The notes: a model not told the origin generated them from the sequence alone. A stretch of 42,368 bases of DNA from a virus (IMGVR_UViG_3300045988_008159:1-42368); one strand, 5' to 3'; shown: positions 1 to 42,368, counted from the stretch's first letter. A program made the numbers and translations.

Positions 1-141
1 AGGGCAGCTACGCAAGGCTCGACGCGGCCAAGGCGTTTGACGGGATGGGGATCGAGGAGCGGACGCTGCGGTATGCGGGGGAGGTCTATCATTTCGGAGA
101 CAGCCTCACGCAGCGGATGATCCGCGAGTACAACGCCCAGA
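1..141. repeat. Terminal direct repeat, copy 1 (identical to 42228-42368); overlap of a circular assembly
   Basis: Both window ends read agggcagctacgcaaggctcgacg...gagtacaacgcccaga in the same orientation. The match is 141 nt with no mismatch. Confidence 0.97.
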
Positions 142-3100
142 AGGGGAAAAACAAGGGCGTGAGCGCGGCGGAATACGCGCAGCACGTCCGGGACGTTTTC
201 GACAGAGGCGCGCTGGGTGAAAGCCTTGCAGGCACAAAAGACAGGCTGCTGGGAGACGGCATGACGAGGGCGGCATGGAACGCCGGAAAGGGGTTTATCA
301 ATGGCGAGGAAGCAGGAAGCACGGCTGCTGATGACGGCGGCAAACGGGATGCAGGTATGGATTCCGGAGAACAGGCTGGAGCAGTGGCAGAGGGCACAGG
401 AGGCGCAAAAACGCGATCCGCAAAGGCAAGCGCAGTCGCGGAACGAATTGAGCTCGAAAATCGCGTCCGCGCTGCGGGACAGCCGTACCTGAGCGGAAAG
501 GACATTGGACTGGAAAAGGGGTCGGCGCAGCGGAGCTTCCGCGAGGCCCCGGAGAGCACATGGACGGACAGCATGAAGGCTGCCGCCGCAATGCTCCGGC
601 GCGAGGGCTTCAAGGACGTGCATTTCACGGTCGGCGCGATCAGCATCGAGAATCAAAAAGCGAAGGTCACACGGTACGCGGATGGCGTGGTCATGGGCGA
701 CGCGGTGTGGATCAATGCGACGTCGAAGAAATGGACCGTGGAGCAGCTGGCAAAGCACGAGGCGTTCCACCATCAGATCAAGGACTGGCCGTATGCCATG
801 GACGCGGTGCGGCAGACACTGGCAGACGAGCTGGGCGAGGACGGCATTCAGGAGCTTGCACAGCGGTATGCCGAGGCATACGAGGGCTGCTACGACGGCG
901 CGGAGCTGGATACGTACATCGAAGAGATCTGCGCGGACGCCTACGCGGGCATGGACCGGATGCCGGAAGCAAAGACGCAGATCATACAAAAAGCCGCCCG
1001 GCAGGCGCAGGAGGCCCAGCAGGCGGCAGAAGAAAACGGCGGGACCAGAGGCCCGCCGGAGAAGTATTCAGTCAATGAAGGATTCAGCAAGGATGTCGCG
1101 GAGTGGTATCGAGATGGGATGCCGGAGGGAGAAGCATTCGTGCTTGGCTCTACTGGCGAGACGCTGCAGGGGCTTGGTGCGATTGAAAGCGACGTCTATA
1201 TGAATGGCGATAAGATCAACACCATTCTAAGGGAACATCCAGAAATGACAATCCGGGAGATTCAGAAGATTCCGGAATTGCTGGATGACCCGATTCTGAT
1301 TTTGAAAAGCAAAGGCTCTGGCAAAGGCGGGAACAGCCGTTTGGTGCTGTTCGGCTCGATCAATACGCAGGACGGTCAGCCTGTCCTTGCGGTGCTCGAT
1401 CTGCGTCCAAGGGAGAACGGATTTGTTCTGGACGATATGCAGAAGGTTAACAGCGCATACGCGAAAGCAAACCCCGCATCGTTCATTTCGCAGAGTGACG
1501 TTCTGTTTGCGGACAAAAAAAGAACCGTCCCGCTTCTTCGCCGATTCGGGCTTACAGTAACGTCCCGAGAGCTTCTGCGTGATGGTTCTATAGGTAGTAT
1601 ATCCTACCGTGGGAACAGTGTCAACATCTCGGGAGAGAAATTTTCTTCCATCGTCGAAATGGCAGACCAGCCTATGGATGCGAAATTTTCTGCTGACGAT
1701 ACCACAGCAACGCCGCAGGAAAACGACAAGACCGCACTCGCCTACTTTGGGCGGACATACAAATGGAGCGAGACGGGCTATGTTCTGCTGAACGGTGCGC
1801 GGCTGGACTTCTCCGGACGGCACGAGGGCGGCTCCGGCGGATACCGCAGCGTCGATCACAGGGACATCATTGACGCACTCGGCGAGGACTACGGCGGAGG
1901 AGACTACACGGGCGGCATGGTGCGCTTCATGCAGGAGGGCAACATCCGCATTTCCCCGGAGAGCGGCGGCATCAACCTTGCCGTCATGCCGACGAAGGCA
2001 CAGATGGACTCGCTCAGCGACTTCATCAGCAAGGAGCGCGGCGAGGTCATTCTGGACATTGACGACGCAAGCGGAAACACGATCTCCAGCACGGAGTATC
2101 CGCGCGGCACGCACGCAAACAAGGTTTTGCAGGACATCCGCAATTACTTTAACGACGGCACGCTGCCGGAGGTGAGCAATGCCCCGTCGGTCAGCCAGTT
2201 CCGCTATTCGGTGGCGGAGGATGCGCAGGAGGCGGGTGGGACAACCGCCTTCACGCTGGACAGCATTCCGAAGAAGGCGCAGGACTATCTGCGCAGAGTG
2301 CGCGGGCAGACAGCGGCGGCCATCCAGCAGACGCTTTCGATGCCGTTTGCGGCACGTCAGGAGGTCTTGAAGCCTGCCATTGAGGAAATGATGAACGAAT
2401 ATCTCCAGACCGGCAGGATCTCGCAGGAGACGGTAGACAGGAACTTTGAGGAGTCCTACAGGCGCGGCGTGGAGATGGACACGGAATTTTACGACCAGTA
2501 CAAGGACGTAAAAACGCGGCTGCGCGATCTGAAAGTCACGCTGTCGGAGGCAGACCGGGCGGACATTGCGGACTTTGACGATTTCAGAAGGGCTGCTTCG
2601 GGGCGGCTGCGCATCGCAAACGAGGGCGGATTGCCGGTCGATGTGGCATACAAGGAAATGCAGCAGATGGCGCCGGAGCTGTTCCCGGAGAGCATCACGC
2701 ATCCGGCGGATCAGCTCATGCGGATGTTCGAGGTATCGAAGCGAATCGAGAAGGTGCAGATGTCGCTGGACGAATACCACGGCGAGGACGCGGAGGAATT
2801 CAAGCGCTGGGCAAAGAACGACTACGAGGCCAGCGTGGAGAACATGCTGGGAGCGCTGAATGTGGCAAGGCGGTATGCCGAGGCGCGGATGCGGCAGCAG
2901 CAGGCGCGGGCCGTCCCCACGACGATGGAGGAGGTCAAAAGCCTGTACGCAGACCTCAAGGGCCTGCGGCGGACGTATGAGCGGGCGGCGGCAAAGAACC
3001 TGCTGACGGCGGAGGACAACAGCGTCCTGAATCGCCTCCTGCGCGGCGAGATCACGCCGGAGGACGTGCAGGGCATGGAGAATGCGCAGGGCATCCTTGC

Positions 3101-6100
3101 CATGTACGAGGCAAAGGCAGACTATGACGCGGCGGCGGCGAAGATCGCAGACTGGCGGCGATATCGGAAGGGCAAGCTCCGCGAGCAGGCGGACAACCTT
3201 CTGAAAAACGCGGAGAAGGCCAAGGACAAGACGGCCGGGATCGAGTACAGCCGGGAGACGATGACGCGCAACGTCCGGGATATCTTCCCGGAGGCGGACG
3301 CGGAGGCGATCAACAAGACGTATTTCGAGCCAGTCCGGACGGCCAGCGCGAACGCGAACAAGCTGAAAAACAAGCTGCGCGAGCAGGTCAAGAAGCTGAA
3401 TCTGCGCCGGAAGGCCCGCAAGGGCGACGCCGTGAGCGAGGCGCACGCGGTGCAGCTGCTGGGAGAGGCACAGGACAACATCCGGTATCTGGAGCAGCAC
3501 CCGAGGGCGCAGGACCGGGACGGCAAGACGCTCAATGAATGGCGGCAGATCGTGCTGGATCTGTGGGCGACGAGTCCGGGGCTGGACCGGGCGAAGATCG
3601 AAAACGCCGTGGAGACGTTCCGGAAGATCTATGACGGGCTATTTGAGCAGATGAACGACGTGCGCATCCGAAACGGCTATGAGCCGATCAACTACCGGAA
3701 GGGCTATTTCCCCCACTTCCAGAAGGGGACGACGGACGGCATTCTGGGGCTGATGGGAAAGGCGCTCGGCATCGACGCAGAGGTGACAGCACTGCCGACG
3801 ACCATCAGCGGACTGACGCACACCTTCAAGCCGGGCATCACCTACTTCGGAAATGCGCTGGAGCGCATCGGCTTTGACACGGAGTATGACGCGGTGGCGG
3901 GCTTTGACAAGTACGTGGAGGGCGCGGCCAGCGTGATCTGCTACACGGACGCCATCCAGAAGCTGCGGGCGCTTGCACAGCAAGTGCGATACCGCACATC
4001 GGACGAGGGACTGCGGGAGCGGGTGGACGACGTCCGAGCAAGAGACGATCTGACCGAGCACCAGAAGGAACTGGAGATCGAGGCGATCATGAAGCAGGGG
4101 CGCTTTTCGCTTTCGAACTTCGCGGTGGAGCTGGACGAATACATAAATCTGCTGGCAAACAAGAAGAGCAAGTATGACCGAAGCATGGAGCATCTGGGCG
4201 GGCGCAAGCTCTACAATTTCATGAGGGCATGGCAGAACCGGGTGGCGGCGAACATGGTCGCGGTCAACCCGGCGTCGTGGCTGACGAACTTCGGCGTTAT
4301 CACGCAGGCGGGGGCGCAGCTCAAGACGATCTCCGTGCTCAAGGGAATGTGGCAGACGCTGGCAAACATCAAGACGAGCGACGGACTTGTGGAAGCGAGC
4401 GACTTCCTCACAAACCGCGCCGGAAGCGATCCACTGGTCCGAACCTGGCAGCAGAGCGCAAGCGCGTTTCTGTCCACACCAATGGAGTGGATCGACCAGT
4501 TTTCAGCGGGAACCATTGTCCGGGCACGGTACATGGAGAACATCGAACGCGGCATGAGCGAGGAGACGGCGATGCGCGAGGCGGACGATTTCGCGGCAAA
4601 CGTGATGGCAGACCGCTCGAAGGGCGCGATGCCGACGATCTTTGAGTCGCGAAATCCGCTTATGAAAATGCTCACGCAGTTCCAGCTGGAGGTCAACAAC
4701 ACATATTCGTATCTCTTCAAGGATCTCCCGCGCGAGCAGCGGAAGAAGGGCGTCCGATATCTGGCACTGGCGCTGTTCAAGTTCCTGATCGGCGGATTCC
4801 TTTACAACGAGCTATATGAATATCTCATCGGAAGACGCCCGATGCTCGATCCGCTGGGGATCGTCAACGACACAGTGGGCGATCTGACGGGGTATGAGCT
4901 GAATAATCTGGTGGACGCTGCGACCGGCGGCGGACTTATCAAGGAGTCGGAGCAGGAGAGCGCGATTAGAAGCGCAGGAAACCTTGCAGAAAACGTGCTG
5001 AGTGAGCTCCCGGCAACGGCAGCACTGAACCTTGTCGGGCTCGAAATTGACGGTGGAAAGCTGCCGTTCGGAAGTTCTTTCCCGGACCTCGGGAATATCA
5101 AATCAGCGCTGAACTCGGAGACCGCGACGGACGAGGAAAAGCTGGCGAAGATCGGGAAGGAAATGATCAACCCGGCGGCATACTGGCTGCTGCCGTTCGG
5201 CGGCGGGCAGATCAAGAAAATGTGGCAGGGCATCAGCGCTCTGAAACGGCAGGGCAGCTATACGGCGAACGGGCGGCTCCAGTATCCGATCTACACCGAC
5301 CGGAAGGGAGACAAGGCGAATGCCGTCTGGCGGACGCTGCTGTTCGGCAAGAGCGCGACGCCGGAGGCGCAGGCGTGGGTCGAGGCGGGCTTCGGCGCGC
5401 TGAGCGAGAAGGCGACGCAGACGTATGAGGCGATGCGCGCCGGAGGAGTTGACCAGAGAGACAGCTATGAGCTCATCAAGGCCATGTCCAAGGTCAAAAA
5501 GACCGACACGCAGACCAAGGAGCAGCTGCAAATGCAGCTCCTCAATGCGTTCGACATTGAGGACAGCGGGAAGGTGCTGTACTACTACAACATGATGGCA
5601 AGCGACAAGGAGCGGGCGCAGATCGACAAGCTGCTGGCAGAGGGCGCGGACATGGGAGAATACCTCCGGTATCTGCAAGAAAAGTCCGGCGTGACCGGCG
5701 AGAAGGACGCAGACGGAAAGACGATCTCCGGAAGCGTGAAAGCGGAGACCATCGCGCTGATAGACGGGCTCAATCTGTCGCCGGAACAGAAAACGGAGCT
5801 GGCGAAGGAGGACTACACGCCAACGGGATTTGAGCCTTGGACGGAAAACCACGACAAGCTTTACAAGGCCGTATCGACCGGGAAGGATCTGCGGAGCACG
5901 CTCAAGGGCCTTGAAAAGGACGGATACGAGCCGAAGGAGATCCGCGCGGCCATCACGGACATGTTCCGCGACGAGTATCTGGCGGCGGACAAGGCCGGGA
6001 AAGCAAGGCTCAAGGGATACCTGCGGAACGCATTCATGGTGAGCGGACTTTCGCAGAAGGAAGCGGAAAACAAGATCAAGAAATGGGAGGAGGCGCAGAA

Positions 6101-6104
6101 ATGA
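1..6104 (+). CDS. Giant polyvalent virion protein, C-terminal part (continuation of 39212-42368); zincin HExxH plus a MuF-C/PBECR-like block plus a hydrophobic C-terminal region
   Basis: The frame is open from base 3, so the Met at 45 used by the track is internal. The phase matches 39212 once 42228 is equated with 1. HEAFH lies at 756-770. The block LREHPEMTIREIQKIPELLDDPILILKS lies at about 1230-1310. Hydrophobic stretches lie at about 4230-4330 and 4750-4830. Stop TGA is at 6102-6104. Confidence 0.88.
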   Translation, partial: GSYARLDAAKAFDGMGIEERTLRYAGEVYHFGDSLTQRMIREYNAQKGKNKGVSAAEYAQHVRDVFDRGALGESLAGTKDRLLGDGMTRAAWNAGKGFINGEEAGSTAADDGGKRDAGMDSGEQAGAVAEGTGGAKTRSAKASAVAERIELENRVRAAGQPYLSGKDIGLEKGSAQRSFREAPESTWTDSMKAAAAMLRREGFKDVHFTVGAISIENQKAKVTRYADGVVMGDAVWINATSKKWTVEQLAKHEAFHHQIKDWPYAMDAVRQTLADELGEDGIQELAQRYAEAYEGCYDGAELDTYIEEICADAYAGMDRMPEAKTQIIQKAARQAQEAQQAAEENGGTRGPPEKYSVNEGFSKDVAEWYRDGMPEGEAFVLGSTGETLQGLGAIESDVYMNGDKINTILREHPEMTIREIQKIPELLDDPILILKSKGSGKGGNSRLVLFGSINTQDGQPVLAVLDLRPRENGFVLDDMQKVNSAYAKANPASFISQSDVLFADKKRTVPLLRRFGLTVTSRELLRDGSIGSISYRGNSVNISGEKFSSIVEMADQPMDAKFSADDTTATPQENDKTALAYFGRTYKWSETGYVLLNGARLDFSGRHEGGSGGYRSVDHRDIIDALGEDYGGGDYTGGMVRFMQEGNIRISPESGGINLAVMPTKAQMDSLSDFISKERGEVILDIDDASGNTISSTEYPRGTHANKVLQDIRNYFNDGTLPEVSNAPSVSQFRYSVAEDAQEAGGTTAFTLDSIPKKAQDYLRRVRGQTAAAIQQTLSMPFAARQEVLKPAIEEMMNEYLQTGRISQETVDRNFEESYRRGVEMDTEFYDQYKDVKTRLRDLKVTLSEADRADIADFDDFRRAASGRLRIANEGGLPVDVAYKEMQQMAPELFPESITHPADQLMRMFEVSKRIEKVQMSLDEYHGEDAEEFKRWAKNDYEASVENMLGALNVARRYAEARMRQQQARAVPTTMEEVKSLYADLKGLRRTYERAAAKNLLTAEDNSVLNRLLRGEITPEDVQGMENAQGILAMYEAKADYDAAAAKIADWRRYRKGKLREQADNLLKNAEKAKDKTAGIEYSRETMTRNVRDIFPEADAEAINKTYFEPVRTASANANKLKNKLREQVKKLNLRRKARKGDAVSEAHAVQLLGEAQDNIRYLEQHPRAQDRDGKTLNEWRQIVLDLWATSPGLDRAKIENAVETFRKIYDGLFEQMNDVRIRNGYEPINYRKGYFPHFQKGTTDGILGLMGKALGIDAEVTALPTTISGLTHTFKPGITYFGNALERIGFDTEYDAVAGFDKYVEGAASVICYTDAIQKLRALAQQVRYRTSDEGLRERVDDVRARDDLTEHQKELEIEAIMKQGRFSLSNFAVELDEYINLLANKKSKYDRSMEHLGGRKLYNFMRAWQNRVAANMVAVNPASWLTNFGVITQAGAQLKTISVLKGMWQTLANIKTSDGLVEASDFLTNRAGSDPLVRTWQQSASAFLSTPMEWIDQFSAGTIVRARYMENIERGMSEETAMREADDFAANVMADRSKGAMPTIFESRNPLMKMLTQFQLEVNNTYSYLFKDLPREQRKKGVRYLALALFKFLIGGFLYNELYEYLIGRRPMLDPLGIVNDTVGDLTGYELNNLVDAATGGGLIKESEQESAIRSAGNLAENVLSELPATAALNLVGLEIDGGKLPFGSSFPDLGNIKSALNSETATDEEKLAKIGKEMINPAAYWLLPFGGGQIKKMWQGISALKRQGSYTANGRLQYPIYTDRKGDKANAVWRTLLFGKSATPEAQAWVEAGFGALSEKATQTYEAMRAGGVDQRDSYELIKAMSKVKKTDTQTKEQLQMQLLNAFDIEDSGKVLYYYNMMASDKERAQIDKLLAEGADMGEYLRYLQEKSGVTGEKDADGKTISGSVKAETIALIDGLNLSPEQKTELAKEDYTPTGFEPWTENHDKLYKAVSTGKDLRSTLKGLEKDGYEPKEIRAAITDMFRDEYLAADKAGKARLKGYLRNAFMVSGLSQKEAENKIKKWEEAQK

Positions 6105-6457
6105 GCGCGGCAAACACGATCCCCGGCGCGCGGGTCAGCCCGCGCATTGCGAACGGGTGCATTTGCTGGTATGAGGGAGACACGTTCTCCCTCCGGCTCC
6201 GGCTGGAGCTGGAGGACCAGGACGGCGCGGACGTGGCCATCGGGCAGACGGACACGATCAAGGTCACATTCTACGACTGGACAAAGAAGGCCGTGCAGGA
6301 ATTCTCCTTCACCGGCGCGGACGAGAACACGGTCACGCTGGCGTTCACGGACGAGGTGACGGCCAAGTTCCCGCGCGGCATCTACCGGTACGACATTTTA
6401 TACACGCACGGCAACCGGACCACGCTTGCGAGCGGGAACATTGCGCGTGTGGAATAA
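6101..6457 (+). CDS. Hypothetical virion protein (118 aa)
   Basis: ATGA start/stop overlap with the giant gene. GGGAGGAGG lies upstream. The track start at 6083 is an upstream extension in the same frame. Confidence 0.7.
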   Translation: MSAANTIPGARVSPRIANGCICWYEGDTFSLRLRLELEDQDGADVAIGQTDTIKVTFYDWTKKAVQEFSFTGADENTVTLAFTDEVTAKFPRGIYRYDILYTHGNRTTLASGNIARVE

Positions 6458-11433: not shown

Positions 11434-11641
11434 GATCATCAAGCGGCTCGGGAATCTCCTGAGCGTGAAGAGCCTTGTGACGCTGACGCTGACGGCGGTA
11501 TTTGCGTACATGGCCGTGGTAGGCAAGATCAGCCAGGACTTTATGACGGTGTATGCCGTCGTGATCGCATTCTACTTCGGCACGCAGAGCCAGAAGGTGC
11601 AGGACGCAGTGGATGGAGGCGCAAACAATGCCGGTAATTAA
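11426..11641 (+). CDS. Holin
   Basis: GGAGG lies 8 nt before ATG 11426. The 71-aa product has TM helices (LVTLTLTAVFAYMAVVG, VYAVVIAFYFG). The gene is immediately upstream of the endolysin and overlaps it. Confidence 0.65.
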   Translation: MDKIIKRLGNLLSVKSLVTLTLTAVFAYMAVVGKISQDFMTVYAVVIAFYFGTQSQKVQDAVDGGANNAGN

Positions 11642-15416: not shown

Positions 15417-15440
15417 ATTAAGCATTTTGGTTAGCATTTT
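15417..15440 (+). repeat. ATTAAGCATTTT / GGTTAGCATTTT repeats, candidate arm-type sites (P' arm)
   Basis: They share the TAGCATTTT core, in the same orientation, with 15188-15212. They overlap the last codons of int. Confidence 0.45.
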
Positions 15441-27215: not shown

Positions 27216-27346
27216 GCATATTTCGGAGGCTGTGCCGGGCGAAGGCCCGAGACAGTACGAGCCATGTTCTTTCCTTCCTACTGGGCGCGGAGTTGGGGAC
27301 CTCCGCGCCTGGCAGAGCTTCCGAAAAACGAAAGGGGGCGAAGAGC

Positions 27347-27856
27347 CTGAACGAAAAGGTATACAAGAGCGCGCGGGAGCTTCGCTCCGCAATCGACCGG
27401 TATTTCGCATCGATCTGCTACCGGGAGCCGGTGACGAGGACGGAGCCGGTGCTGGAGGATCGGGAATTTATCAGAAACGGAGAACGGATCGTGATGCAAT
27501 GCCCCGCGCTCGACAAATACGGACACACGCAGACGGCGGTCGTGCCGGTGATGCGCGGGAAAAAGCCGCTCATGCGCGAGGTATGGACACGGCCTCCGTG
27601 CATGCCGGAGCTGCTGGGCGCGCTGGGACTGGACGAAAAGCAATGGGATGCGATGCGCACATCGGAGGAGTTCGCAAAGGCCTGCGCGCGCGCAGGGGCG
27701 CGAATCGAGATCTACAACATCCAGCGGCTCGACAGCTCCGCCGCGAACGGCGCAAAGTTCCATCTGGAACGAAAGTTCGGATGGGATGAAAAGACAAGCG
27801 GCACGACGGAGACGGAGATCGAGCTTCCGGAGGAGATCGCACAATGGCGAAGATAA
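27347..27856 (+). CDS. terS: Terminase small subunit
   Basis: PELLGALGLDEKQWDAM...ARIEIYNIQRL...GAKFHLERKFGWDEK fits the TerS pattern, and the gene lies directly upstream of TerL. The track ATG at 27146 lies upstream of the terminator. The best RBS (AAGGGGG plus 8 nt) points to CTG 27347, so the start is uncertain. Confidence 0.65.
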   Translation: MNEKVYKSARELRSAIDRYFASICYREPVTRTEPVLEDREFIRNGERIVMQCPALDKYGHTQTAVVPVMRGKKPLMREVWTRPPCMPELLGALGLDEKQWDAMRTSEEFAKACARAGARIEIYNIQRLDSSAANGAKFHLERKFGWDEKTSGTTETEIELPEEIAQWRR

Positions 27857-29878: not shown

Positions 29879-30074
29879 ACGCGCGGGACGTGCAGATGTC
29901 TACAACATGGAAGTGGAAGAAACGCACGATTTTGTAATACAAGGCGGCGTGATCTCCCATAATTGCGCGGACGAATGGCGGTATTTCTGCATGAGCCGTC
30001 CGGTGAAGCCGATGCTGGCCGTGCCGGAAAAGCCGCAGTGGATCGACCCGCTGAACATGATGGAGGAAAGATAA
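29859..30074 (+). CDS. terL: C-terminal split-intein half (35 aa) fused to the TerL C-extein (36 aa)
   Basis: GGAGGAGG RBS and ATG 29859. The product is MKVKSVRRAGRADVYNMEVEETHDFVIQGGVISHN|CADEWRYFCMSRP. Intein blocks F and G end in HN, followed by the +1 Cys and the TerL D..RY nuclease motif. Confidence 0.8.
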   Translation: MKVKSVRRAGRADVYNMEVEETHDFVIQGGVISHNCADEWRYFCMSRPVKPMLAVPEKPQWIDPLNMMEER

Positions 30075-31828
30075 TGCGTTACCCCGAACTGAACGCGCCT
30101 GCGCAGGAACAGCTGGTGACGGAGGCCTTCGCGGGCTACAACCACAACCTGCGCATTGCCGATGGCGAATTCTACGAGATGCAGAATCTCACATCGGACT
30201 ACTATCCCCTGCTGTCTCAGCGCGCGGCCCGCGCAACGGTCGGAGATTTCTCCGGCATCCAAGGGCTGCTGGCAAAGGACGCGCTGGCATGGATCGAGGA
30301 CGGCGTGCTGTGGTACAACGCGCTGTCCATGGCTCCGTACATGGGAGGGGTGCTGCTCTCCGAGGGACAAAAACAGATGGTGTCCATGGGCGCGTACATC
30401 TGCGTTTTCCCGGACGGATGGTATTTCAACACCGAGGACTACACGGACAACGGCTACATGGGCCATGAAAACCTCGTGGACTGCACGCAGACGGCGCTTT
30501 CCATCAAGGTCTGCACCGTGGACGGGGCCGTTATCACGATCACATACCGGCAGCAGGCCATGCCGGAGGACGCCGCAAATGACGCCTACTGGCTGGATAC
30601 GGGCAAGCATGAACTCAAGCAGTGGAGTTCCGTGCAGAGCCAGTGGGTGAGCATCCCGACGGTATACGTCAAGCTGGAGGCAAACGGAATCGGAGCGGGC
30701 TTCAAAAAGTACGACGGCGTGCAGATCAGCGGACTCGACGGGACGGATCAGATCGAAAAGCTCAACGGCTCCCACGTTTTGCAGGACGTCGGCGACAACT
30801 ACCTAGTGATCGTCGGGATCGTGGACGCGGACGCGAGCCAGAGCACAGGCGAGGTCAAGGCCGCCCGGCGTGTGCCGAAGATGGACTACATCACCGAGAG
30901 CGGGAACCGGCTCTGGGGCTGCCGGTACGGCGTGTCCGACGGGAAAACCGTCAACGAGCTGTACTGCTGCAAGCTGGGTGATTTCAAGAACTGGGAGTGC
31001 TATCAGGGCATTTCGACGGATTCATGGCGCGCAAGCTGCGGTACGGACGGACGCTTCACAGGAGCCGCGACGCTGGCAGACAGCCCGATTTTCTTCAAGG
31101 AGGACTGCTTTCACCGCATTTATCCGAGCGCGCAGGGCGCGCATCAGGTCAAGGAGATCAAGGCCCGAGGCGTGCAGCGCGGAAGTGAGCAGAGCCTGAC
31201 CGTCATTGCCGATAAGCTCTATTACAAGGCACGGGACGGCGTGTGCGTCTATGACGGCTCCCTCCCCTATCTGATCTCGGACGCCTTCGGGACGGAGCTT
31301 TACCGCAAGGCGGCTGCCGGAGGCGTGCGCGGAAAGTATTTCATATCGATGCAGGACAGCAGCGATGCCTGGCAGCTTTTCGTATATGACACGCTCAAGG
31401 GGCTTTGGCACCGGGAGGACGGCATGCATGCGACGCAGTTCGCCGCGCTCGACGATGAGCTTTATATGCTCAGCGCGGACGGGATGCTCGTCACGGCCTA
31501 CGGCTCCGGCGGCGGAAACGTCGAACCGGAGATCCCATGGTCAGCCACGACCGGGATCATGACATGCGGCCTCGTAGGAAAGAAATACATCTCACGGCTG
31601 AATCTGCGGATGCAGCTGCCCGTCGGAAGCGCGTGCGACTTCTGGATCGAGTACGACTCCTGCGGGGAGTTCCGGCACGCCGGACACATGGACGGACACG
31701 GACTGCGGACGTTCCTGCTGCCGATCCGCCCGCAGCGGTGTGACCATCTGCGGTTCCGGATCACAGGAAAAGGGCCGTTTAAGCTCTACAGCATCGGGCG
31801 CGTACTGGAAGCCGGAAGCGACGCCTGA
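30074..31828 (+). CDS. Large structural-module protein of unknown function (584 aa)
   Basis: TAATG overlap with the TerL C-piece. The track start at 29963 overlaps that gene. It is a beta-rich sequence located between terminase and portal. Confidence 0.7.
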   Translation: MRYPELNAPAQEQLVTEAFAGYNHNLRIADGEFYEMQNLTSDYYPLLSQRAARATVGDFSGIQGLLAKDALAWIEDGVLWYNALSMAPYMGGVLLSEGQKQMVSMGAYICVFPDGWYFNTEDYTDNGYMGHENLVDCTQTALSIKVCTVDGAVITITYRQQAMPEDAANDAYWLDTGKHELKQWSSVQSQWVSIPTVYVKLEANGIGAGFKKYDGVQISGLDGTDQIEKLNGSHVLQDVGDNYLVIVGIVDADASQSTGEVKAARRVPKMDYITESGNRLWGCRYGVSDGKTVNELYCCKLGDFKNWECYQGISTDSWRASCGTDGRFTGAATLADSPIFFKEDCFHRIYPSAQGAHQVKEIKARGVQRGSEQSLTVIADKLYYKARDGVCVYDGSLPYLISDAFGTELYRKAAAGGVRGKYFISMQDSSDAWQLFVYDTLKGLWHREDGMHATQFAALDDELYMLSADGMLVTAYGSGGGNVEPEIPWSATTGIMTCGLVGKKYISRLNLRMQLPVGSACDFWIEYDSCGEFRHAGHMDGHGLRTFLLPIRPQRCDHLRFRITGKGPFKLYSIGRVLEAGSDA

Positions 31829-34747: not shown

Positions 34748-35851
34748 TTGAAGAAACTTTTTGAGATTATGCAGGTCTGCCACGCGCCGGACGCCGGTAC
34801 GCTGGTCAACACCACGCAGAACTATGTAAACGCTTACGACGGCTCGACCACGGCGTTCGCAGCGCCCAACGACCTGTCGTCGCTGATGAAGACATACTAC
34901 GACACGGAGCTGCTGGAAAACGCGCGTCCGAACCTCATTCACGCGCAGTTCGCCAGAAAGCAGCCGCTGCCGAAGGGCCGGGGCAAGAAGGTCGAATGGA
35001 GAAAGTTCAACACCCTCGCGGACGCTTCGGCACTGACCGAGGGCGTCATTCCCACCGGCCAGAAGTTCGGACAGTCGAGCATGACGGCAAGCATCCTCCA
35101 GTACGGCACCTATCTGACGGTATCCGATCAGCTGGAGCTGCACGCCATCGACAACGTGATCCTCAGTGCGACCGAGGAACTGGGCGCTTCGGCAGGCACC
35201 ACGCAGGACAAGCTTGTGCGAGACACCCTCGCGGCTGGCACGACCGTACAGTACTGCGACAAGGTGAGCGCAGCAGGCGCGCACACTGCCGCCGAGACCA
35301 GAGCAGGCATGGACACCACGTCCAAGCTCACCCCGACCGAGGTAAACAAGGCCGTGACCACGCTGAAAAAGCTCAAGGCCCCGACGATCAACGGCAAGTA
35401 CGTCGCGATCATCCACCCGTCGGTCTCCTACGACCTGCGCGAGAACAAGGAGTGGATCGAGGCGCACAAGTATGCGGCGGTCACGCCGCTGTTCACCGGC
35501 GAGATCGGCGAGCTGCACGGCGTTCGCTTCATCGAGACGACTGAGGCGAAGATCTGGAACAACAACACCTGCCCCGTCAAGACGGCAGCAGGTTCTGGCG
35601 GTACGCCTGCGGCGACCTACTACAGCGTGTATTCCACGCTCTTCCTCGGCAAGGACGCCTTCGGTATGATCGATCCGGAGGGCGGCGGTCTGGAAATGAT
35701 CGTAAAGAGCAAGGAGCAGGCGGGCGGCCCGCTGAACCAGTTCAGCACGCTCGGCTATAAGTTCTCCACCGCGACGAAGATCCTCTATCAGGATCGCATG
35801 GTCCGCGTAGAGAGCCTGTCGGAGTATTCCGGCACGGACGAGGCCAACTAA
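34748..35851 (+). CDS. Major capsid protein (HK97 fold, N4-gp56-like family)
   Basis: A 367-aa protein containing KAPTINGKYVAIIHPSVSYDLRE and GELHGVRFIETTEAK. Its position follows portal and scaffold. The start is TTG 34748 or ATG 34769. Confidence 0.85.
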   Translation: MKKLFEIMQVCHAPDAGTLVNTTQNYVNAYDGSTTAFAAPNDLSSLMKTYYDTELLENARPNLIHAQFARKQPLPKGRGKKVEWRKFNTLADASALTEGVIPTGQKFGQSSMTASILQYGTYLTVSDQLELHAIDNVILSATEELGASAGTTQDKLVRDTLAAGTTVQYCDKVSAAGAHTAAETRAGMDTTSKLTPTEVNKAVTTLKKLKAPTINGKYVAIIHPSVSYDLRENKEWIEAHKYAAVTPLFTGEIGELHGVRFIETTEAKIWNNNTCPVKTAAGSGGTPAATYYSVYSTLFLGKDAFGMIDPEGGGLEMIVKSKEQAGGPLNQFSTLGYKFSTATKILYQDRMVRVESLSEYSGTDEAN

Positions 35852-36618: not shown

Positions 36619-37887
36619 ATGGGGAGCCTGACTTTACAGTACCCGCCCATGACCGGCGGGGACGCCGCGCAGCAGCTGGACGGGCTGCGGCGGTATCTGG
36701 TACAACTGACGGATGAGCTGAACGGCGCGGACTGGTCGGCGGGCGCGGTGCTCACGCAGATCTCGCAGGCCATCGATGCAAGCGCACTGTCGAAGGAGGA
36801 GCGGCTGACGGAGCTGAGCGGCTTTGCCGCGCTCAAGACGCTCATCATCAAGACGGCGGATTTTGCGGCGGAGAACTCCGAGGCATTCAAGCTCAAGCTC
36901 AGCGGAAATTATGTGGCCGTGTCGGACTTCGGGAAGTACTGGCAAGAGGCCAGCATGACCATTGACGGAAACGAATTCGGCATCCGGCAGCTGTATGAGT
37001 TCTCGGCGGGCGTCAACAACGCTTTTACCGTGAACTCGAAGCAGTACGTCAAGACGGGGCTGCTGTACTACAACGGCGTGACGCCGGTCTATGGCGTGGG
37101 CGTCGGCAACATCGAGACGACCGTGTCCAACGACAAGGAAGTGATCGACAAGACGCAGAACGAGCTGCTGACCGTCACGTCCGGCAGGGTAAGCTTCTGG
37201 CAGGGCGGCAGTGAGGTCGCCTATCTGGCACAGAAAAAGCTCCACTTCCCTTCCGGAACGCTGGAGGCATTCGACGCGAAGCTGACCGGAACGGTCACAG
37301 CGGCGGCGGGGTCGAGCTTCGGCCCGTGGAGCATCTCCGAGAGCAGCATCTACCGCACCGACAACACATGGGGCGGGGCCGGACTTTACTTCGGAACGGA
37401 CGGGCTTTCCATCGGGAGCGCATTCAAGGTGGACGCAAGCGGCAAGCTGACCGCGACGGGCGCGGATATCACCGGCTCCATCAAGGCAAGCGATCTGCTG
37501 CTCAACCAGAACGGCAGCTACACCAGCATTCAGATGCAGCTTTCGTCGCTGATTGCGGACGTGCAGGAGCTGACGGCGCTGGCCGCAACGGTCAGCACAA
37601 ACACCAACGGCGGGCTGGACTCACTCAACCTCAACATTGGCAACCGGGGATGGCTGAGCATCACGGGCGCCAGCACGGCGTCCTCGGCGGTGGAGCTGTT
37701 TTCCTATGGAGCCGTGCGAATTCTGGCAGACAGCGGCTCGGTGTATCTGGCGCTGAGCGACAACAGCGCGTATATCCACATTACAGAAAACGGAGAAATC
37801 AAAATCAAGGGAACGAGCCTCACCTTTAACGGGGCCAGCATCAACACCTCCGGAAACGTCACGGAGGGTACCGAGGAGGCGACATGA
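36619..37887 (+). CDS. Putative tail/needle structural protein (422 aa)
   Basis: A Ser/Thr/Gly-rich, beta-rich C-terminal half, located in the late operon. Confidence 0.6.
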   Translation: MGSLTLQYPPMTGGDAAQQLDGLRRYLVQLTDELNGADWSAGAVLTQISQAIDASALSKEERLTELSGFAALKTLIIKTADFAAENSEAFKLKLSGNYVAVSDFGKYWQEASMTIDGNEFGIRQLYEFSAGVNNAFTVNSKQYVKTGLLYYNGVTPVYGVGVGNIETTVSNDKEVIDKTQNELLTVTSGRVSFWQGGSEVAYLAQKKLHFPSGTLEAFDAKLTGTVTAAAGSSFGPWSISESSIYRTDNTWGGAGLYFGTDGLSIGSAFKVDASGKLTATGADITGSIKASDLLLNQNGSYTSIQMQLSSLIADVQELTALAATVSTNTNGGLDSLNLNIGNRGWLSITGASTASSAVELFSYGAVRILADSGSVYLALSDNSAYIHITENGEIKIKGTSLTFNGASINTSGNVTEGTEEAT

Positions 37888-38087
37888 TGGTAAAAGAAGT
37901 AAACGAGCTGAGGAAGAAGATCGCAGAGGCGCTGAACGGGTCGAGGCTGCCGCCGGTCGTGGCGGCGCTGGTGCTTGACAGCTACCGAGCAGAGCTGCAA
38001 AGGCTCGTGGAGATGCAGGAGGCGGCAGAGGCAGCAAGGCCGCCGGAGAAGGAGGACGCGGAAGATGGCACTGTACAGAGTAAATGA
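37884..38087 (+). CDS. Small structural-module protein (67 aa)
   Basis: ATGA overlap with the upstream gene. Confidence 0.5.
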   Translation: MMVKEVNELRKKIAEALNGSRLPPVVAALVLDSYRAELQRLVEMQEAAEAARPPEKEDAEDGTVQSK

Positions 38088-39201
38088 TGACGGACGTGCG
38101 CCGTCTGGGCTTGGCGTCGGCGACGAGGTGGTAACTGCGGGCGGTACTTACCGCATCGACAGCGTGGGCGCGGACGGGCAGTACAAGTCCACGCTCGTAA
38201 ACAAGGGCCAGACCACGCAGAACTACAAGGGCAGCTATTCCACGCGGAACACGCTGCCGGGCTATTCCGACTACACGGCGGGCAGACTCGGGAATCTCGA
38301 AAGGGGCTACTCCCCTTCCGGCGCGGTATCGCAGGCAAAGGCATACCTCCAGCAGGTGCAGAGCCGGAGGCCGGGCGCGTATCAGTCGCGGTGGGATGCG
38401 GAGCTGGACAGCCTGTATGACCAGATCACCAACCGCAAGCCGTTCCAATACGACCTCAATCAGGATGCGCTGTATCAGCAGTACAAGGAGCAGTATCAAA
38501 GGCTTGGCAGGACGGCCATGCAGGACACGATGGGCCAGGCAGCCAGCCTCACGGGCGGCTACGGCTCGACCTACGCAGAGCAGGTAGGACAGCAGACCTA
38601 CAACGCATACCTCCAGAGCCTGAACGACATCGTGCCGGAGCTCTACGACCGGGCGTATGGCCGGTATCAGGACGAGGGGCAGGATCTCTACAACAGGTAC
38701 GGCCTCGTGAGCGACCGGGAGAGCATGGACTACAGCAAGTACCGGGACACGGTATCGGACTACTACAACGACCTTGCCGACGCGCGGAGCTCCTACGACT
38801 CCGAGTGGAACAAAGATTACACGCAGTGGTCGGATCAGCTCAGCTACTGGCAGCAGAAGGCTGCGCAGGAGCAGGCCTATTGGCAGTCGCAGCAGAGGGC
38901 CGCAGGTGGAAGCGGCGGCAGCGGAGGCGGAAGAGCGGGCAGCTCCGGAACCGGAAGCGGAAAGGGGTATATCGACAACACCTACAACAGCGGCGGAGCG
39001 GGCGGTGCAATGGCACAGACGTACAACCAGCTCAAGCGCGGTATGACCGAGTGGATCATGGCGGGACAGCCGGAAAAGGCATACGACCTGTTTTTGAGTA
39101 TGGCGGGACAACTCAATCTGAGCAATTCGACCGGAAAGAAGCAGTATAACGAGCTGGTCAGCATCCTGAACAAGGCGGGCTACGGAATCCCGAAGGAATA
39201 A
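38065..39201 (+). CDS. Q/Y-rich structural-module protein with a Gly/Ser linker (378 aa)
   Basis: GGAGAAGGAGG RBS and ATG 38065. Repeated Y..Y/Q-rich helices and the linker GGSGGSGGGRAGSSGTGSGKG. It lies directly upstream of the giant gene. Confidence 0.65.
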   Translation: MALYRVNDDGRAPSGLGVGDEVVTAGGTYRIDSVGADGQYKSTLVNKGQTTQNYKGSYSTRNTLPGYSDYTAGRLGNLERGYSPSGAVSQAKAYLQQVQSRRPGAYQSRWDAELDSLYDQITNRKPFQYDLNQDALYQQYKEQYQRLGRTAMQDTMGQAASLTGGYGSTYAEQVGQQTYNAYLQSLNDIVPELYDRAYGRYQDEGQDLYNRYGLVSDRESMDYSKYRDTVSDYYNDLADARSSYDSEWNKDYTQWSDQLSYWQQKAAQEQAYWQSQQRAAGGSGGSGGGRAGSSGTGSGKGYIDNTYNSGGAGGAMAQTYNQLKRGMTEWIMAGQPEKAYDLFLSMAGQLNLSNSTGKKQYNELVSILNKAGYGIPKE

Positions 39202-39211
39202 GGAGTGCAAT

Positions 39212-42200
39212 ATGGCAAAGAAACGCACAGGGCTTGATGCTCTGCGGGAGTATGAGGCGCGGAGTGGACGGCAGACGCAGAGCGGAAACCAGCAGACAGG
39301 AAACGCAGGCAGCTCCGGCGGAACGTGGCGCAGCGGGCTTGACGCGCTGCGGGAGTATGAGGCAAGCGGCGGCGGGCAGAACGTCACGAACGGCCCATAT
39401 AATCCGGATTACCGGACGAACACCAGGAAAGCGACGCCGCAGAGCTATGAGGCGGCATATCAGCAGTACAAGCAGTATGTCGCAGAGTACCAGAAGCAGA
39501 CGGAATTCCCACGCAGAGTATCCGTCGGAACGGCTGCCCAGCAGGCGGGCGGAAGCCAGAAGCGGGACTACAGCCGCATGCTCGGCCTGAATCAGCTCGA
39601 CGGGGATATGCAGACACGCGTACAGGCGGCACAGGATATTCAGAAGTATCTACAGTTTCAGCGCAAGGTGCAGACCGGAACGGCGGCCCAGCAGGCGGCG
39701 ACGAATGCCGGGCAGGACTATAGCCGCCTGATCGGTCTGAATCAGTTCGACGGGGAGATGGAAAGACGGGCTGAGGAATGGCAGCGAAAGCAGCAGGCAG
39801 CACAGGAGGCCGCAGCGCTGGATCAGGAGCGAGGACGCAGGCGCACTTCGGAAGAATACGGGAAGCGGATCGACGCGCTGGAGGCCGCAAGCGATTATGC
39901 GCGGGCACAGAATGCCGAGGGCGGCGGGCTGCCGGAATTCAAGGATGCCTATGACAAGGTAAACGCCGAACGCGAGACGCCCATGACACTGGACGAGATG
40001 CAGAAGGAGCTTGCCTATACGCGATACAAGAAGGCCGTTCTGGACAAGTCCGTTTCCGGGCGCGTCGGGGAGTATGCGGGCGACCTGGCAACGCAGTTCA
40101 TCTCCGGCGGCGCGGATATGGCACTGGGCGGCTTGTTTATGGTCGACAGTTATCTGGATAAGGGCATGAACGGCGCGGCGGCGTGGGTGCTGCGGGACCT
40201 CGCAAAGGCTGTGCCGGATGGAAGCATCAAGGACAAAATGCTGTCCCTTGCGGACGATTTCAGCAGCTACTACACGGGCGAGAGCATGACCGCCGGAGAA
40301 GAGTCGGCACGGTACTACAAAGACGAGCTGAACAAGCTCGGCGATGAGATCGAGGGGAAATACAAGGGCGTTCCGCTCTGGATTCTGCAGCAGATGCCGT
40401 CGGCAGGAAATATGCTGTTCGGCGCGGGGCTGAGCGGCATTGCGGGCGTCAACAATCTCGTGACGCTCGGACTGACGTCCGGCGGCAACTCGGCACTGGA
40501 GGCGAAGGACAAGGGCGCGAGCGACGCACAGGCGCTGGCCTACGGCGTGGTCGCGGGCGGCTTGGAGGTGTTCTCCGAAAGGCTGTTCGGCGGAAACCCG
40601 ATCTACGACGCGGATGCGGGTCTGGTAAATCAGGCGGTCGGAAAGCTCACAAGCAACAAGACGATCATGAAGATCCTCAACAGCAAGGCATTCGACATTG
40701 CGTCGGAAGGTCTGGAGGAGGTCGTTACCGAAGTTCTCGACCCGGTGGCAGAGTGGGCCATCTACAACGGAGACAACACGGAGTTTGCAGACGCGGCGTC
40801 CATCGGGAACGCATTCCTCGGAGGCGTGTTCCTTTCGGCGGTCGGCAATGTGGCCGACGCGCCGAAGCAGCTACAGCAGGCGCGATATGAGCGCGTCTTG
40901 AGAACGGCAGGCTCGGAGCTGGCAGACATTGCACAGAGCGTGGACAGCGCGGACGTGCAGGAGGCGGCGCAGGTGATCCGGGACAAGATCGCCTACGGCG
41001 TGACGCCGGACGCGGCGGACATCGGCGCGGTGCTCGACGCGATGGATCAGGCCGGAGAGACCGTGGACGTGGAGCAGGTACGCGAAGCGGTGGACGCGGA
41101 GGAAAACGAGGCCAAGGCCGTGCAGGCCGAGGCGGCTTTTCAGACGTACAACCAGTATGCAGATGAGCGGGATGCGAAGGCGCGGGATGCGGAAAAGGCG
41201 TCGTGGGCGCGGTCGCAGGAGAACACAGAGGCCATCAACGACGCGGAGGCGGACAGTGCAGCGGATGCCTTTGAAAAGCTGAACGAGGCGGAGGTAAAGG
41301 GCGCAGCAGACGCGCGGGCACGTCAGCAGACGGAGGAGGCCCGCGCGGAACGGACGTTTACACAGGAGAGCCGGGACGACGCGGACAGGCTGCTGACCGA
41401 CGCGGCCAGACGGTACGGCTTTGACGACCGCATGACCAGCGTGCTTCTATCCGGCTACGACGGAGCGCAGGACGCGCAGCAGTACGCAGAGGACGTGAAT
41501 GCGGCTTACGAGTACGGCAGGAACGGAATGAGCCTTTCGGCGGCACAGAGAGCCGCACAGGGTGTGAACGCGGATGTGGCGCAGGAGGCGTGGAACGCGG
41601 GCCGGGCGTCGATCCAGCGCGCGCCTATGAGTGCCTTTGAGCGGTACAACCAGTATGCAGACGAACGGGATGCGCGGCAGGCGGCAAGAGAAGCTCCGCA
41701 GCAAGCAAGCGTGCAGACCGTACAGGCCGTTCAGGAAGCGGCAAGGCCGCAGCAGGCACAGACGCAGACGGCCGCACAGGAAACGCGGGAGGCCGCGCAG
41801 ACCGCAAAGGAGGCCGCTCCGAAGGCACAGGAGACGGTACGGGAGACCGCGCAGGAGCAGACAAAGCCAGCACAGGAGCGGGCGGAGACGAAGCCTGCAA
41901 AGCAGGAAGCGCAGGAAAGCAAGCCGCAGGCACTTGCTGCAAATCAATACGACGCCCGGAAGCTGGCGGCAGCCGAGATCAAAAAAAGCGATGTGACCGT
42001 GCCGGATGCAGTCAGGGACTACGACAAGAGGCTGGACGAGGCAGTCGCTGAGATCTACCGGCTCAAGGAGGCGGATGGAAAAGGCGAGGGAGCAAAAGTC
42101 CCGGTCTCTTCCATGATTACAAGCTTCCAGTATGGAATCCGGAGCATTGGGTTTGTTTCTCAGGAAACGAACAACGCGGACTTCCTTGCGGACGCGCAGG

Positions 42201-42368
42201 CATGGCTGATCGGTAACGCCGTCGCAAAGGGCAGCTACGCAAGGCTCGACGCGGCCAAGGCGTTTGACGGGATGGGGATCGAGGAGCGGACGCTGCGGTA
42301 TGCGGGGGAGGTCTATCATTTCGGAGACAGCCTCACGCAGCGGATGATCCGCGAGTACAACGCCCAGA
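39212..42368 (+). CDS. Giant polyvalent virion protein, N-terminal part; the frame stays open to the window end and continues at base 1
   Basis: AGGAG at 39201-39205 precedes ATG 39212. I translated this frame by hand to 42368 and found no stop (MAKKRTGLDALREYEARSG...GEVYHFGDSLTQRMIREYNAQ). The ORF track omits it because it has no stop. It contains internal duplications, a Gly-rich hydrophobic region and a Q/A/E/T-rich low-complexity tract. Confidence 0.9.
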   Translation, partial: MAKKRTGLDALREYEARSGRQTQSGNQQTGNAGSSGGTWRSGLDALREYEASGGGQNVTNGPYNPDYRTNTRKATPQSYEAAYQQYKQYVAEYQKQTEFPRRVSVGTAAQQAGGSQKRDYSRMLGLNQLDGDMQTRVQAAQDIQKYLQFQRKVQTGTAAQQAATNAGQDYSRLIGLNQFDGEMERRAEEWQRKQQAAQEAAALDQERGRRRTSEEYGKRIDALEAASDYARAQNAEGGGLPEFKDAYDKVNAERETPMTLDEMQKELAYTRYKKAVLDKSVSGRVGEYAGDLATQFISGGADMALGGLFMVDSYLDKGMNGAAAWVLRDLAKAVPDGSIKDKMLSLADDFSSYYTGESMTAGEESARYYKDELNKLGDEIEGKYKGVPLWILQQMPSAGNMLFGAGLSGIAGVNNLVTLGLTSGGNSALEAKDKGASDAQALAYGVVAGGLEVFSERLFGGNPIYDADAGLVNQAVGKLTSNKTIMKILNSKAFDIASEGLEEVVTEVLDPVAEWAIYNGDNTEFADAASIGNAFLGGVFLSAVGNVADAPKQLQQARYERVLRTAGSELADIAQSVDSADVQEAAQVIRDKIAYGVTPDAADIGAVLDAMDQAGETVDVEQVREAVDAEENEAKAVQAEAAFQTYNQYADERDAKARDAEKASWARSQENTEAINDAEADSAADAFEKLNEAEVKGAADARARQQTEEARAERTFTQESRDDADRLLTDAARRYGFDDRMTSVLLSGYDGAQDAQQYAEDVNAAYEYGRNGMSLSAAQRAAQGVNADVAQEAWNAGRASIQRAPMSAFERYNQYADERDARQAAREAPQQASVQTVQAVQEAARPQQAQTQTAAQETREAAQTAKEAAPKAQETVRETAQEQTKPAQERAETKPAKQEAQESKPQALAANQYDARKLAAAEIKKSDVTVPDAVRDYDKRLDEAVAEIYRLKEADGKGEGAKVPVSSMITSFQYGIRSIGFVSQETNNADFLADAQAWLIGNAVAKGSYARLDAAKAFDGMGIEERTLRYAGEVYHFGDSLTQRMIREYNAQ
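42228..42368. repeat. Terminal direct repeat, copy 2 (identical to 1-141)
   Basis: Same comparison as copy 1. It implies a unique circular length of 42,227 bp. Confidence 0.97.

Follow-up and report, generated by a model that had tools for sequence, protein, structure and literature searches.

A giant gene cut by the ends of a circular gut phage contig probably encodes a polyvalent protein with an exchangeable internal cassette

Introduction

The viral contig IMGVR_UViG_3300045988_008159:1-42368 (hereafter the window, meaning the whole 42,368-nucleotide stretch analysed) raises the question of what is encoded by a plus-strand reading frame that starts at ATG 39212 and leaves the end of the sequence without having met a stop codon. 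An earlier note on this DNA had proposed that the frame continues at the other end of the window to form one giant gene, and that the product is a polyvalent protein comparable to the internal virion proteins of podoviruses. Based on the analysis described here, we consider it likely, with a probability of roughly 0.7, that the giant gene encodes a polyvalent protein of the phage type that is expressed late, packed in the capsid, and ejected together with the DNA into Oscillospiraceae of the gut. To our knowledge, the phages of these dominant gut bacteria are almost unstudied.

The open reading frame is continuous across the window ends

Reading from ATG 39212, 1,052 codons pass without a stop before the window ends (39212..42368, + strand), the prior in-frame stop being located at 39167. 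Positions 1-141 and 42228-42368 match exactly, 141 nucleotides (nt) being the length of the longest exact terminal repeat, and because these ends are identical the unit genome is 42,227 bp. When the sequence was circularised and open reading frames (ORFs) were called again, a single ORF of 9,120 nt and 3,039 amino acids (aa) was obtained, in the phase of the ORF at 45-6104; its 3' part occupies 1..6104 (+) and ends with the TGA at 6102-6104. The giant gene makes up 21.6% of the 42,227-bp genome. All of the figures given in the earlier note are right, as is the identity of the two ends. It had also called the gene unreported, which holds only for the ORF track, since an identical protein is already present in nr (DAT33794.1, 'MAG TPA: hypothetical protein [Caudoviricetes sp.]'). 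The track lists only 45-6104 because the ORF tool requires a start codon; a circular contig cut inside its largest gene can hide that gene from such a track.

The properties of the frame are those of a gene. Random codons at 58% GC are stops in approximately 3.5% of cases, as estimated from base composition, which puts the chance of 3,039 codons without a stop at about e^-108. The GC content at third codon positions (GC3) is 0.77, in line with the remaining genes, and nothing else in the window comes near it in codon-usage score. A ribosome-binding site read from the sequence (AAGGAG, 39200..39205, +) is separated from ATG 39212 by a 6-nt spacer and overlaps the TAA of the upstream 378-aa gene, and at the other end the TGA of the giant gene shares nucleotides with the start codon that follows (ATGA). 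The giant gene is translationally coupled to its structural-gene neighbours on both sides by these overlaps.

Continuity of the gene is also seen in other assemblies. The ENA contig scaffold_452 (42,282 bp, sample ERZ28595483), which is rotated differently, holds the giant gene internally and is 100% identical at the nucleotide level over the 9,120 nt and over a 3-kb segment spanning the junction. More than 100 homologues of 2,725-3,422 aa were found on other contigs of ~42-43 kb, some of them inside contigs of 60-113 kb. Related ENA contigs carry names beginning with k141_. As for the terminal overlap itself (1..141, a copy of 42228-42368), the largest default k of the assembler MEGAHIT is 141. 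The overlap is an assembler signature of a circular path and not necessarily a biological terminal repeat, and neither the physical ends of the genome nor the mode of packaging can be read from it.

The giant protein has the domain composition of a polyvalent protein

Polyvalent proteins were defined as a class by Iyer, Burroughs, Anand, de Souza and Aravind (2017, J Bacteriol, PMC5512222), who predict for them packaging, injection with the DNA, and processing mediated by a zincin. According to the same study, MuF_C is a PBECR, an RNase-like domain of the BECR fold (PMC5512222). A search of the giant protein with Pfam identified MuF_C (PF18819) at aa 1412-1513, with an E value of 2.5e-13 and a score of 50.5 bits (cut-off 27.6) when the whole protein was searched and an E value of 9.9e-15 when the search used the tile that contains it, and the AlphaFold 2 (AF2) model of the domain has a predicted local distance difference test (pLDDT) score above 90. 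The domain lies within effector module 1, MuF_C/PBECR (aa 1364-1566; 1074..1682, +). Upstream of it is a predicted zincin-like metallopeptidase domain (aa 1150-1352; 432..1040, +), recognised by motif and predicted topology, which contains the HExxH motif as HEAFH (aa 1258-1262; window 756-770) and a glutamate-bearing helix, EEICADAYAG (aa 1313-1322; window 921-950). Both elements are conserved in an alignment of 32 diverse sequences. The AF2 model of aa 1150-1352 (pLDDT >90) shows a helix, a beta-sheet, the HExxH helix, an insert, and the Glu helix; helix, sheet, HExxH helix and Glu helix form the topology by which Iyer et al. 2017 describe their MPTase (PMC5512222). At least one HExxH is present upstream of the C-terminal module in 109 of the 120 representatives with a long N-terminal part, the motifs being of at least two types.

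Three features by which the class is recognised are found at this locus. The giant protein combines at least two disparate domains, namely the zincin-like HExxH domain, MuF_C/PBECR and a second effector module. Hallmark domains of the class are represented by MuF_C in this protein and by ART-PolyVal, LPD3, LPD23 and PBECRs in its relatives. The gene also stands in a phage context, with the small and large terminase (TerS, TerL), portal and capsid genes upstream and fibre and lysis genes downstream. The MuF_C match, the conserved HExxH domain, and the ART-PolyVal, LPD3 and LPD23 modules swapped in among relatives bear out the proposal that this is a polyvalent protein.

An internal slot holds exchangeable cassettes between short linkers

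Comparison of 120 close relatives revealed that the blocks at aa ~100-1350 and 1750-3039 are constant, with a mean identity of 85-93%, while over aa ~1350-1750 only about half of these relatives align. At least 26 cassette types occupy this slot among the close relatives. The cassettes match ART-PolyVal (1.3e-24), LPD3 (1.3e-8), LPD23 (1.2e-24) and the DUF6782 metallopeptidase in Pfam, and several modules carry no Pfam label. Fourteen distant members match LPD23 (8), ART (6), MuF_C (5), PBECR5 (4) and PBECR3 (2); the Pfam identifiers found in relatives are PF18760, PF18798, PF18838, PF18814 and PF18812.

In the giant protein the cassette consists of two modules and three linkers. Linker 1 (GTRGPPEKYSV, aa 1353-1363; 1041..1073, +) forms the left boundary and coincides with a breakpoint. 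It is followed by the MuF_C module, by linker 2 (KFSA, aa 1567-1570; 1683..1694, +), recognised by its motif, and by effector module 2 (aa 1571-1739; 1695..2201, +), whose family is unassigned and which carries the motif DFSGRHEGGSGGYRSVDHRD. Module 2 has no match in Pfam, NCBIfam or the PDB, is present in 3 of 150 family representatives, is present or absent independently of the rest in relatives, and is modelled with a confidence of only 50-85. Linker 3 (RYSVAEDAQEA..., aa 1740-1756; 2202..2252, +) forms the right boundary. The 3,039 aa contain just three matches to the pattern [KR][FY]S[VAI], at 1360, 1567 and 1740, these being the three module borders, and all three linkers lie in segments with pLDDT <50 that are predicted to be disordered.

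The exchange itself could be followed in a variant that carries an ART cassette. Nucleotides 1-4082 of the gene are 94% identical between the two versions and nucleotides 5269-9120 are 93% identical, the middle being replaced. The left break falls at the KYS codon (codon 1361), and at linker 3 an island of 34 nt is shared, at 100% identity, with a linker inside the cassette region of the ART version. The MuF_C module has a GC content of 51% and a GC3 of 57%, as compared to 61-63% and 79-81% in the flanking parts of the gene, and it is 64% identical to the corresponding module of the sister lineage (MT835607), whereas the flanks are only 28-39% identical. Because the module differs from its flanks in both GC content and cross-lineage identity, we conclude that cassettes move horizontally; the MuF_C cassette looks as if it was exchanged recently and is of foreign origin.

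The linker motif is enriched throughout the superfamily. Among its representatives, the 900 aa preceding the C-terminal module contain 149 copies of [RKQ][YF]S[IVAL], compared to 17.1±3.9 in shuffled sequences, with a density of 1.56 per kb there and 0.26 per kb outside this zone. The motif can be recognised in alignments of lineages that are only 20-50% identical, and may extend beyond the Firmicutes family. The linkers thus serve as recombination joints. They are also plausible sites of cleavage by the predicted zincin, as suggested by their conservation at the protein level, their predicted disorder, and the presence of an aromatic residue.

Two constant scaffolds surround the zincin-like domain and the cassette

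The N-terminal region of the giant protein (aa 1-230; 39212..39901, +) is lineage-specific, being found in 3 of the 150 family representatives, and contains internal duplications, with GLDALREYEA and a unit of ~30 aa ('GTAAQQA..DYSR..GLNQ.DG.M') each present twice. The duplications lie at window positions 39230-39364 and 39524-39760 (aa 7-51 and ~105-183). It is followed by the conserved, glycine-rich N2 domain (aa 231-620; 39902..41071, +), present in 114 of the 150 representatives, which is moderately hydrophobic in two segments (aa 401-419 and 526-548), carries the motif SEGxEE as an invariant feature, and is a candidate membrane or channel element. A low-complexity spacer, lineage-specific among the 150 representatives, connects N2 to the zincin-like domain.

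The second scaffold is the C module (aa 1757-2860; 2253..5564, +), the conserved core of the superfamily, which is predicted to be all-alpha-helical and includes a strongly hydrophobic helix (aa 2588-2611; window 4746-4817). It is present in all 150 representatives and is 93% identical in close relatives. A C-terminal helical tail (aa 2861-3039; 5565..6101, +) is present in 119 of them. An exhaustive HMMER search with aa 1790-2989 matched 2,993 cluster representatives (clustered at 50% identity) at E<1e-3, 1,673 of them below 1e-30; the matched proteins are 970-3,900 aa long and the match is always near the C terminus. Short representatives that might be taken for stand-alone C modules mostly look like incomplete gene calls, and we did not use them as evidence. 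The AlphaFold model of the C module, built from an alignment of 38 sequences, is almost wholly helical (pLDDT 76.8, predicted template modelling score 0.60). This model matches 69 BFVD models at E<1e-3, which represent pieces of giant phage proteins, in most cases labelled as the second segment or a later one. Where a name is given, it is mostly a label of the polyvalent type (ART-PolyVal, LPD3, LPD38, MuF_C, nuclease, methylase); Cellulophaga phage phi19:3 is the source of one of these models.

Searches of the remaining sequence returned little. PHROGs gave no match to the whole protein, Pfam applied to ten tiles at E≤1 gave MuF_C alone, and NCBIfam applied to the tiles gave nothing. PDB sequence searches with the single sequence and with profiles of the central region and of N2 found nothing meaningful, and the C-module profile found low-complexity matches only. 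Foldseek comparison of the C module and central region to the PDB gave no match at E<0.2. Sixteen N2 domains had no match in Pfam and no tape-measure signal. An N4-like or crAss-like virion RNA polymerase was considered and rejected, there being no match to a polymerase family, PDB sequence or PDB fold in any search.

The giant gene lies between the head and fibre genes of a temperate phage

A genome map was drawn from PHROG and Pfam searches of the window proteins. Upstream of the giant gene it shows TerS and TerL (27293-29406), a 584-aa gene (p584; 30074..31828, +) that matches the 'internal virion protein' family phrog_511 at E 8.7e-59, a portal of the P22/SU10 Pfam type (31846-33729), a gene in the scaffold position between portal and capsid genes, and the major capsid protein (34748-35851). 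Between the capsid gene and the giant gene are genes of 76, 151, 412, 67 and 378 aa to which no family could be assigned. The 67-aa gene (37884-38087) overlaps by 23 nt the 378-aa gene (p378; 38065..39201, +), which reads in the +1 frame relative to it and lies directly upstream of the giant gene. Downstream are the coupled 118-aa gene (6101..6457, +; phrog_1084, function unassigned), three collagen-like or fibre-like genes followed by a 637-aa Big_2 immunoglobulin (Ig)-domain protein (6470-10773), and a holin and an amidase (10877-12323). The position between head/neck and fibre genes given in the earlier note agrees with this map. Its statement that no tail tube, sheath or tape measure can be recognised also stands: neither the window nor the sister lineage yielded a tube, sheath, tape-measure or baseplate family in PHROGs, Pfam or NCBIfam. 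Similarly, the 151-, 412- and 378-aa proteins showed no recognisable adaptor or nozzle family in searches of the PHROG/Pfam type, p378 had no family match in PHROGs, Pfam or NCBIfam, and NCBIfam was also empty for p584. The phage is probably short-tailed, as judged from the portal type and from the lack of recognisable long-tail genes.

Two of the neighbours travel with the giant gene. Homologues of p378 are located directly upstream of it in ~35 related loci, and homologues of p584 immediately upstream of it in ~28 related prophage loci, although here p584 precedes the portal gene. This arrangement suggests that p584, p378 and the giant gene may be a functional trio, and also suggests a mobile three-gene module. 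In distant prophages (L005, L013, L055 and others) the p584 homologue adjoins both the p378 homologue and the giant gene. The 118-aa downstream protein is identical at 116 of 118 positions in the ART-cassette variant, in which the neighbourhood is unchanged. Close relatives carry other receptor-binding genes in the fibre slot, among them a 981-aa GDSL-lipase-like gene (L084) and a Y_phosphatase3-like gene (L001).

The phage is temperate and encodes a tyrosine integrase on the minus strand (15418-16458, -; phrog_1, E 1e-43). The window also encodes a rolling-circle-type replication initiator (26093-26839, +; phrog_3584, E 2.5e-35), so that both occur in one phage, the replication module being plasmid-like or like that of rolling-circle replicons. 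Searches of the window for tRNAs and Rfam families were empty.

Relatives are found in prophages of gut Clostridia

A scan of species-representative genomes yielded 109 relatives, nearly all in metagenome-assembled genomes (MAGs) from Oscillospiraceae or allied Clostridia; Bacilli and 'Tenericutes' MAGs contributed more distant relatives. These relatives are prophages, since several of them sit inside bacterial contigs of 200-575 kb. One lineage with only 38.6% identity has the same architecture as the giant protein. A tblastn search of 50,697 phage genomes with the giant protein, portal, p412 (the 412-aa protein), p584 and p378 found no cultured relative that would reveal the morphology. The matches are unannotated human-faecal scaffolds with three named exceptions, these being the portal of the poorly annotated Bacillus phage PK1 (25% identity), a methyltransferase of a Rhodobacteraceae phage whose match spans 7% of the giant protein's length, and the faecal phage NatCom_17901, which matches part of p412.

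Discussion

The domain composition, genomic position and cassette structure described above are those expected of a polyvalent protein, and two giant virion proteins indicate how such a protein may be used. The 2,811-aa protein gp47 of phage phi24B (vb_24B_48), with LPD5/1/38 and MuF-C/metallopeptidase domains, is abundant in the podovirus virions by proteomics and invisible in the cryo-electron microscopy map, and its authors propose that it is an ejection protein (bioRxiv 10.64898/2026.04.10.717836). The virion RNA polymerase of phage N4, gp50 (~3,500 aa), is a giant podovirus protein that is encapsidated and injected. Its N-terminal part is helical and serves injection, the effector is central, and the C-terminal part, which serves encapsidation, contains a zincin MPTase (PMC5512222). 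By analogy, the N2 and C scaffolds could anchor the giant protein in the virion, and their hydrophobic helices could help to build or extend a conduit through the Gram-positive envelope. The zincin would cut the disordered linkers, perhaps before the aromatic residue, and would free the effectors only after assembly or entry, a delay that would also protect the producing cell from toxic modules. The effectors would then act in the first minutes of infection upon host RNA, host proteins or defences.

Several observations weigh against this interpretation. Packaging and ejection are here inferred from the parallels with phi24B gp47 and N4 gp50. Of these, N4 gp50 is packaged unprocessed despite its MPTase (PMC5512222), and for the phi24B peptidase the authors propose a role in peptidoglycan degradation (bioRxiv 10.64898/2026.04.10.717836). 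We also looked for homology to phi24B gp47 outside of MuF_C and rejected it, the hhalign probability for the C module being 0.5. The region at aa 1150-1352 is zincin-like by its motif and predicted topology; the Pfam metallopeptidase models, including MPTase-PolyVal, do not match it, and its best zincin match by Foldseek in the PDB (PprI, 8sln) is not significant (E 0.31). The N2 and C scaffolds match no Pfam, PHROG or NCBIfam family and no PDB sequence, and the C-module model has no fold match in the PDB (best Foldseek E 0.74). Close relatives share the linkers at the nucleotide level too, so that these could be no more than recombination joints. The short tail of the phage is deduced from the portal type and from there being no detectable long-tail genes.

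A more specific version of the mechanism is a self-processing effector injector in which N2, the C module, p584 and p378 together form a trans-envelope conduit and the zincin cuts between [K/R/Q] and [Y/F]-S of the linkers only after ejection. We regard this version as speculative and, on present data, doubtful. If it is true, any module placed in the internal slot would be delivered to and activated in the new host, and the family would represent a natural plug-and-play platform for protein delivery, with a defined cleavage and recombination code, that is common to thousands of gut Firmicutes prophages.

The alternative that deserves the closest attention is that the giant protein is mainly a structural ejection or conduit protein, with a peptidase that digests the wall, passenger modules, and linkers that are never cleaved. 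This reading overlaps the favoured model, but we consider it unlikely as a full account. The scaffolds make up ~50% of the protein and are its conserved parts, hydrophobic helices are present, and PHROGs and Pfam recognise no dedicated virion peptidoglycan hydrolase among the structural genes; the reading is also the phi24B authors' own, and the nucleotide conservation of the linkers noted above fits with it. Against it, the linker motif is conserved as protein across lineages whose flanks are 20-50% identical and lies in disordered segments, the zincin has no similarity to known muralytic peptidases, and the rapid turnover of cassettes among close relatives indicates selection upon the effectors. 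A second alternative is that the prophage gene encodes a MuF-type polymorphic toxin with which the lysogen attacks competing bacteria instead of serving infection by the phage. In its favour, the protein has a variable toxin-like cassette (RNase-like, ART) bounded by a conserved junction motif, as polymorphic toxins do, the phage itself is temperate, and temperate phages of Firmicutes are known to encode MuF toxins (PMC5576092). MuF polymorphic toxins (Jamet et al. 2017) combine an N-terminal Phage_Mu_F domain with a variable toxin at the C terminus, and an immunity gene follows. This is nevertheless very unlikely here, given that Pfam finds no Phage_Mu_F N-terminal domain in the whole protein or its tiles, that the variable part is internal rather than C-terminal, and that the gene is embedded in, and translationally coupled to, a late structural operon. 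Nor is an immunity gene linked to the cassette, the neighbourhood and the 118-aa gene staying the same when the ART cassette is present.

Length and position raise the further alternative of a tape-measure protein that sets the tail length (~450 nm) of a long-tailed phage and carries accessory enzyme domains. The giant protein is very long and largely helical with hydrophobic, glycine-rich segments, its gene is upstream of fibre-like genes, and the 23-nt overlap of the two genes preceding it is faintly reminiscent of the chaperone pair found ahead of tape-measure genes. Peptidase or lysozyme domains also occur in some tape measures. We find this reading hard to credit. No major tail, sheath, Dit/Tal or tape-measure family is found among the neighbours by PHROGs, Pfam or NCBIfam, the portal is of the P22/SU10 type, the N2 profile misses the tape-measure families, and the second of the overlapping genes, in the +1 frame and encoding 378 aa, is unlike a G/GT pair. 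The virion genes are too few, with only three between capsid and giant gene and three between giant gene and lysis genes in the sister lineage. In addition, cassette swaps alter the length by hundreds of residues, between 2,725 and 3,422 aa, in relatives whose constant parts are 85-97% identical, and a ruler function is incompatible with this variation. Finally, two unrelated ORFs could in principle have been joined by a chimeric 141-nt overlap, a danger that the earlier note had itself pointed out, and the overlap does have the length of an assembler k-mer. Such an artefact is excluded by scaffold_452, with its internal and fully identical gene, and the more than 100 full-length homologues elsewhere and the 38.6%-identity lineage with the same architecture argue against it as well; we assign it next to no probability.

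The interpretation of the giant gene as encoding a packaged polyvalent protein has implications beyond this phage. The gene family is very large, with thousands of near-full-length copies on contigs of ~42 kb, and takes up a fifth of each genome. If the protein is injected, its slot would be a catalogue of weapons used early in infection, including RNases, ADP-ribosyltransferases, peptidases and several unassigned modules. The conserved linkers provide a simple rule for locating module boundaries and for testing self-processing.

Comparison with known systems

The closest experimental parallel is phi24B gp47, whose presence in virions lends support to the likeness to podovirus internal virion proteins proposed in the earlier note. 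Both are giant polyvalent proteins of temperate phages, that of phi24B being shown to be short-tailed, and both have a zincin-like domain (HEIIHH in gp47), a linker-like motif (QYS) and MuF_C in the same order, with a BLASTP E value of 1e-4 over MuF_C. In gp47 (locus L082, HM208303.1 49148-57571) the QYS lies between HEIIHH at aa ~1564 and MuF_C at aa ~1697-1884. The two differ in their LPD sets, LPD5/1/38 being found in gp47, and in the host, that of phi24B (Escherichia) being Gram-negative; the gp47 gene is also at the far end of the late region and not between neck and fibre genes. N4 gp50 shares with the giant protein the form of a giant single polypeptide with a zincin or, here, a zincin-like domain and provides the precedent for injection of such a protein, but no RNA polymerase was found in the giant protein and no similarity of sequence or fold was detected. 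Among gut Clostridia, the prophages phi1 and phi4 of C. clostridioforme LM41 are ~41 kb and have an 8-kb ORF that represents ~20% of the genome and resembles LPD3-labelled proteins, and these ORFs have been linked to polyvalent proteins; they are predicted podoviruses, and podovirus-like particles were seen by transmission electron microscopy (PMC11318856). These too are temperate phages with one ORF of ~20% of the genome, likened to ours by description only, and their host belongs to the Lachnospiraceae rather than to the Oscillospiraceae that harbour relatives of the giant gene.

With respect to gene order, the giant gene occupies the slot of the ejection proteins gp7/gp16/gp20 of P22 and gp14/gp15/gp16 of T7, downstream of the neck or tail-hub genes and ahead of those for fibres or spikes. 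The portal is of the P22 type, the proposed role in a DNA conduit is that of the P22 and T7 ejection proteins, and p584, p378 and the giant gene recall the three-gene ejection sets of these phages. The P22 and T7 proteins are, however, separate, much smaller, and without swappable cassettes, and homology of the giant protein to known ejection proteins was not found by PDB sequence searches or, for the C module and central region, by PDB fold searches. With regard to modularity, the giant protein resembles CdiA with its VENN motif, Rhs proteins with DPxGL, and MuF toxins, in all of which a constant delivery part is joined to a variable toxic part that is exchanged at a short motif. In contrast to these polymorphic toxins, its variable part is internal and there is no cognate immunity gene, MuF N-terminal domain, or secretion-system context.

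The best overall agreement is with the polyvalent proteins of Iyer et al. (PMC5512222), with which the giant protein shares the combination of many unrelated domains in one giant polypeptide, a location beside virion genes, and extensive mosaicism. It differs from them in having two large constant scaffolds, N2 and the ~1,100-aa C module, for which there is no Pfam model, in the confinement of its variable modules to one internal slot between [K/R/Q]-[Y/F]-S linkers, and in a zincin-like domain that the Pfam MPTase-PolyVal model misses. The class has been known since 2017 and the giant gene is a new member of it. The advance made here is incremental and consists of two unannotated scaffolds that define a very large family of gut Firmicutes prophages, together with a single internal cassette slot, a linker code, and co-conserved partner genes.

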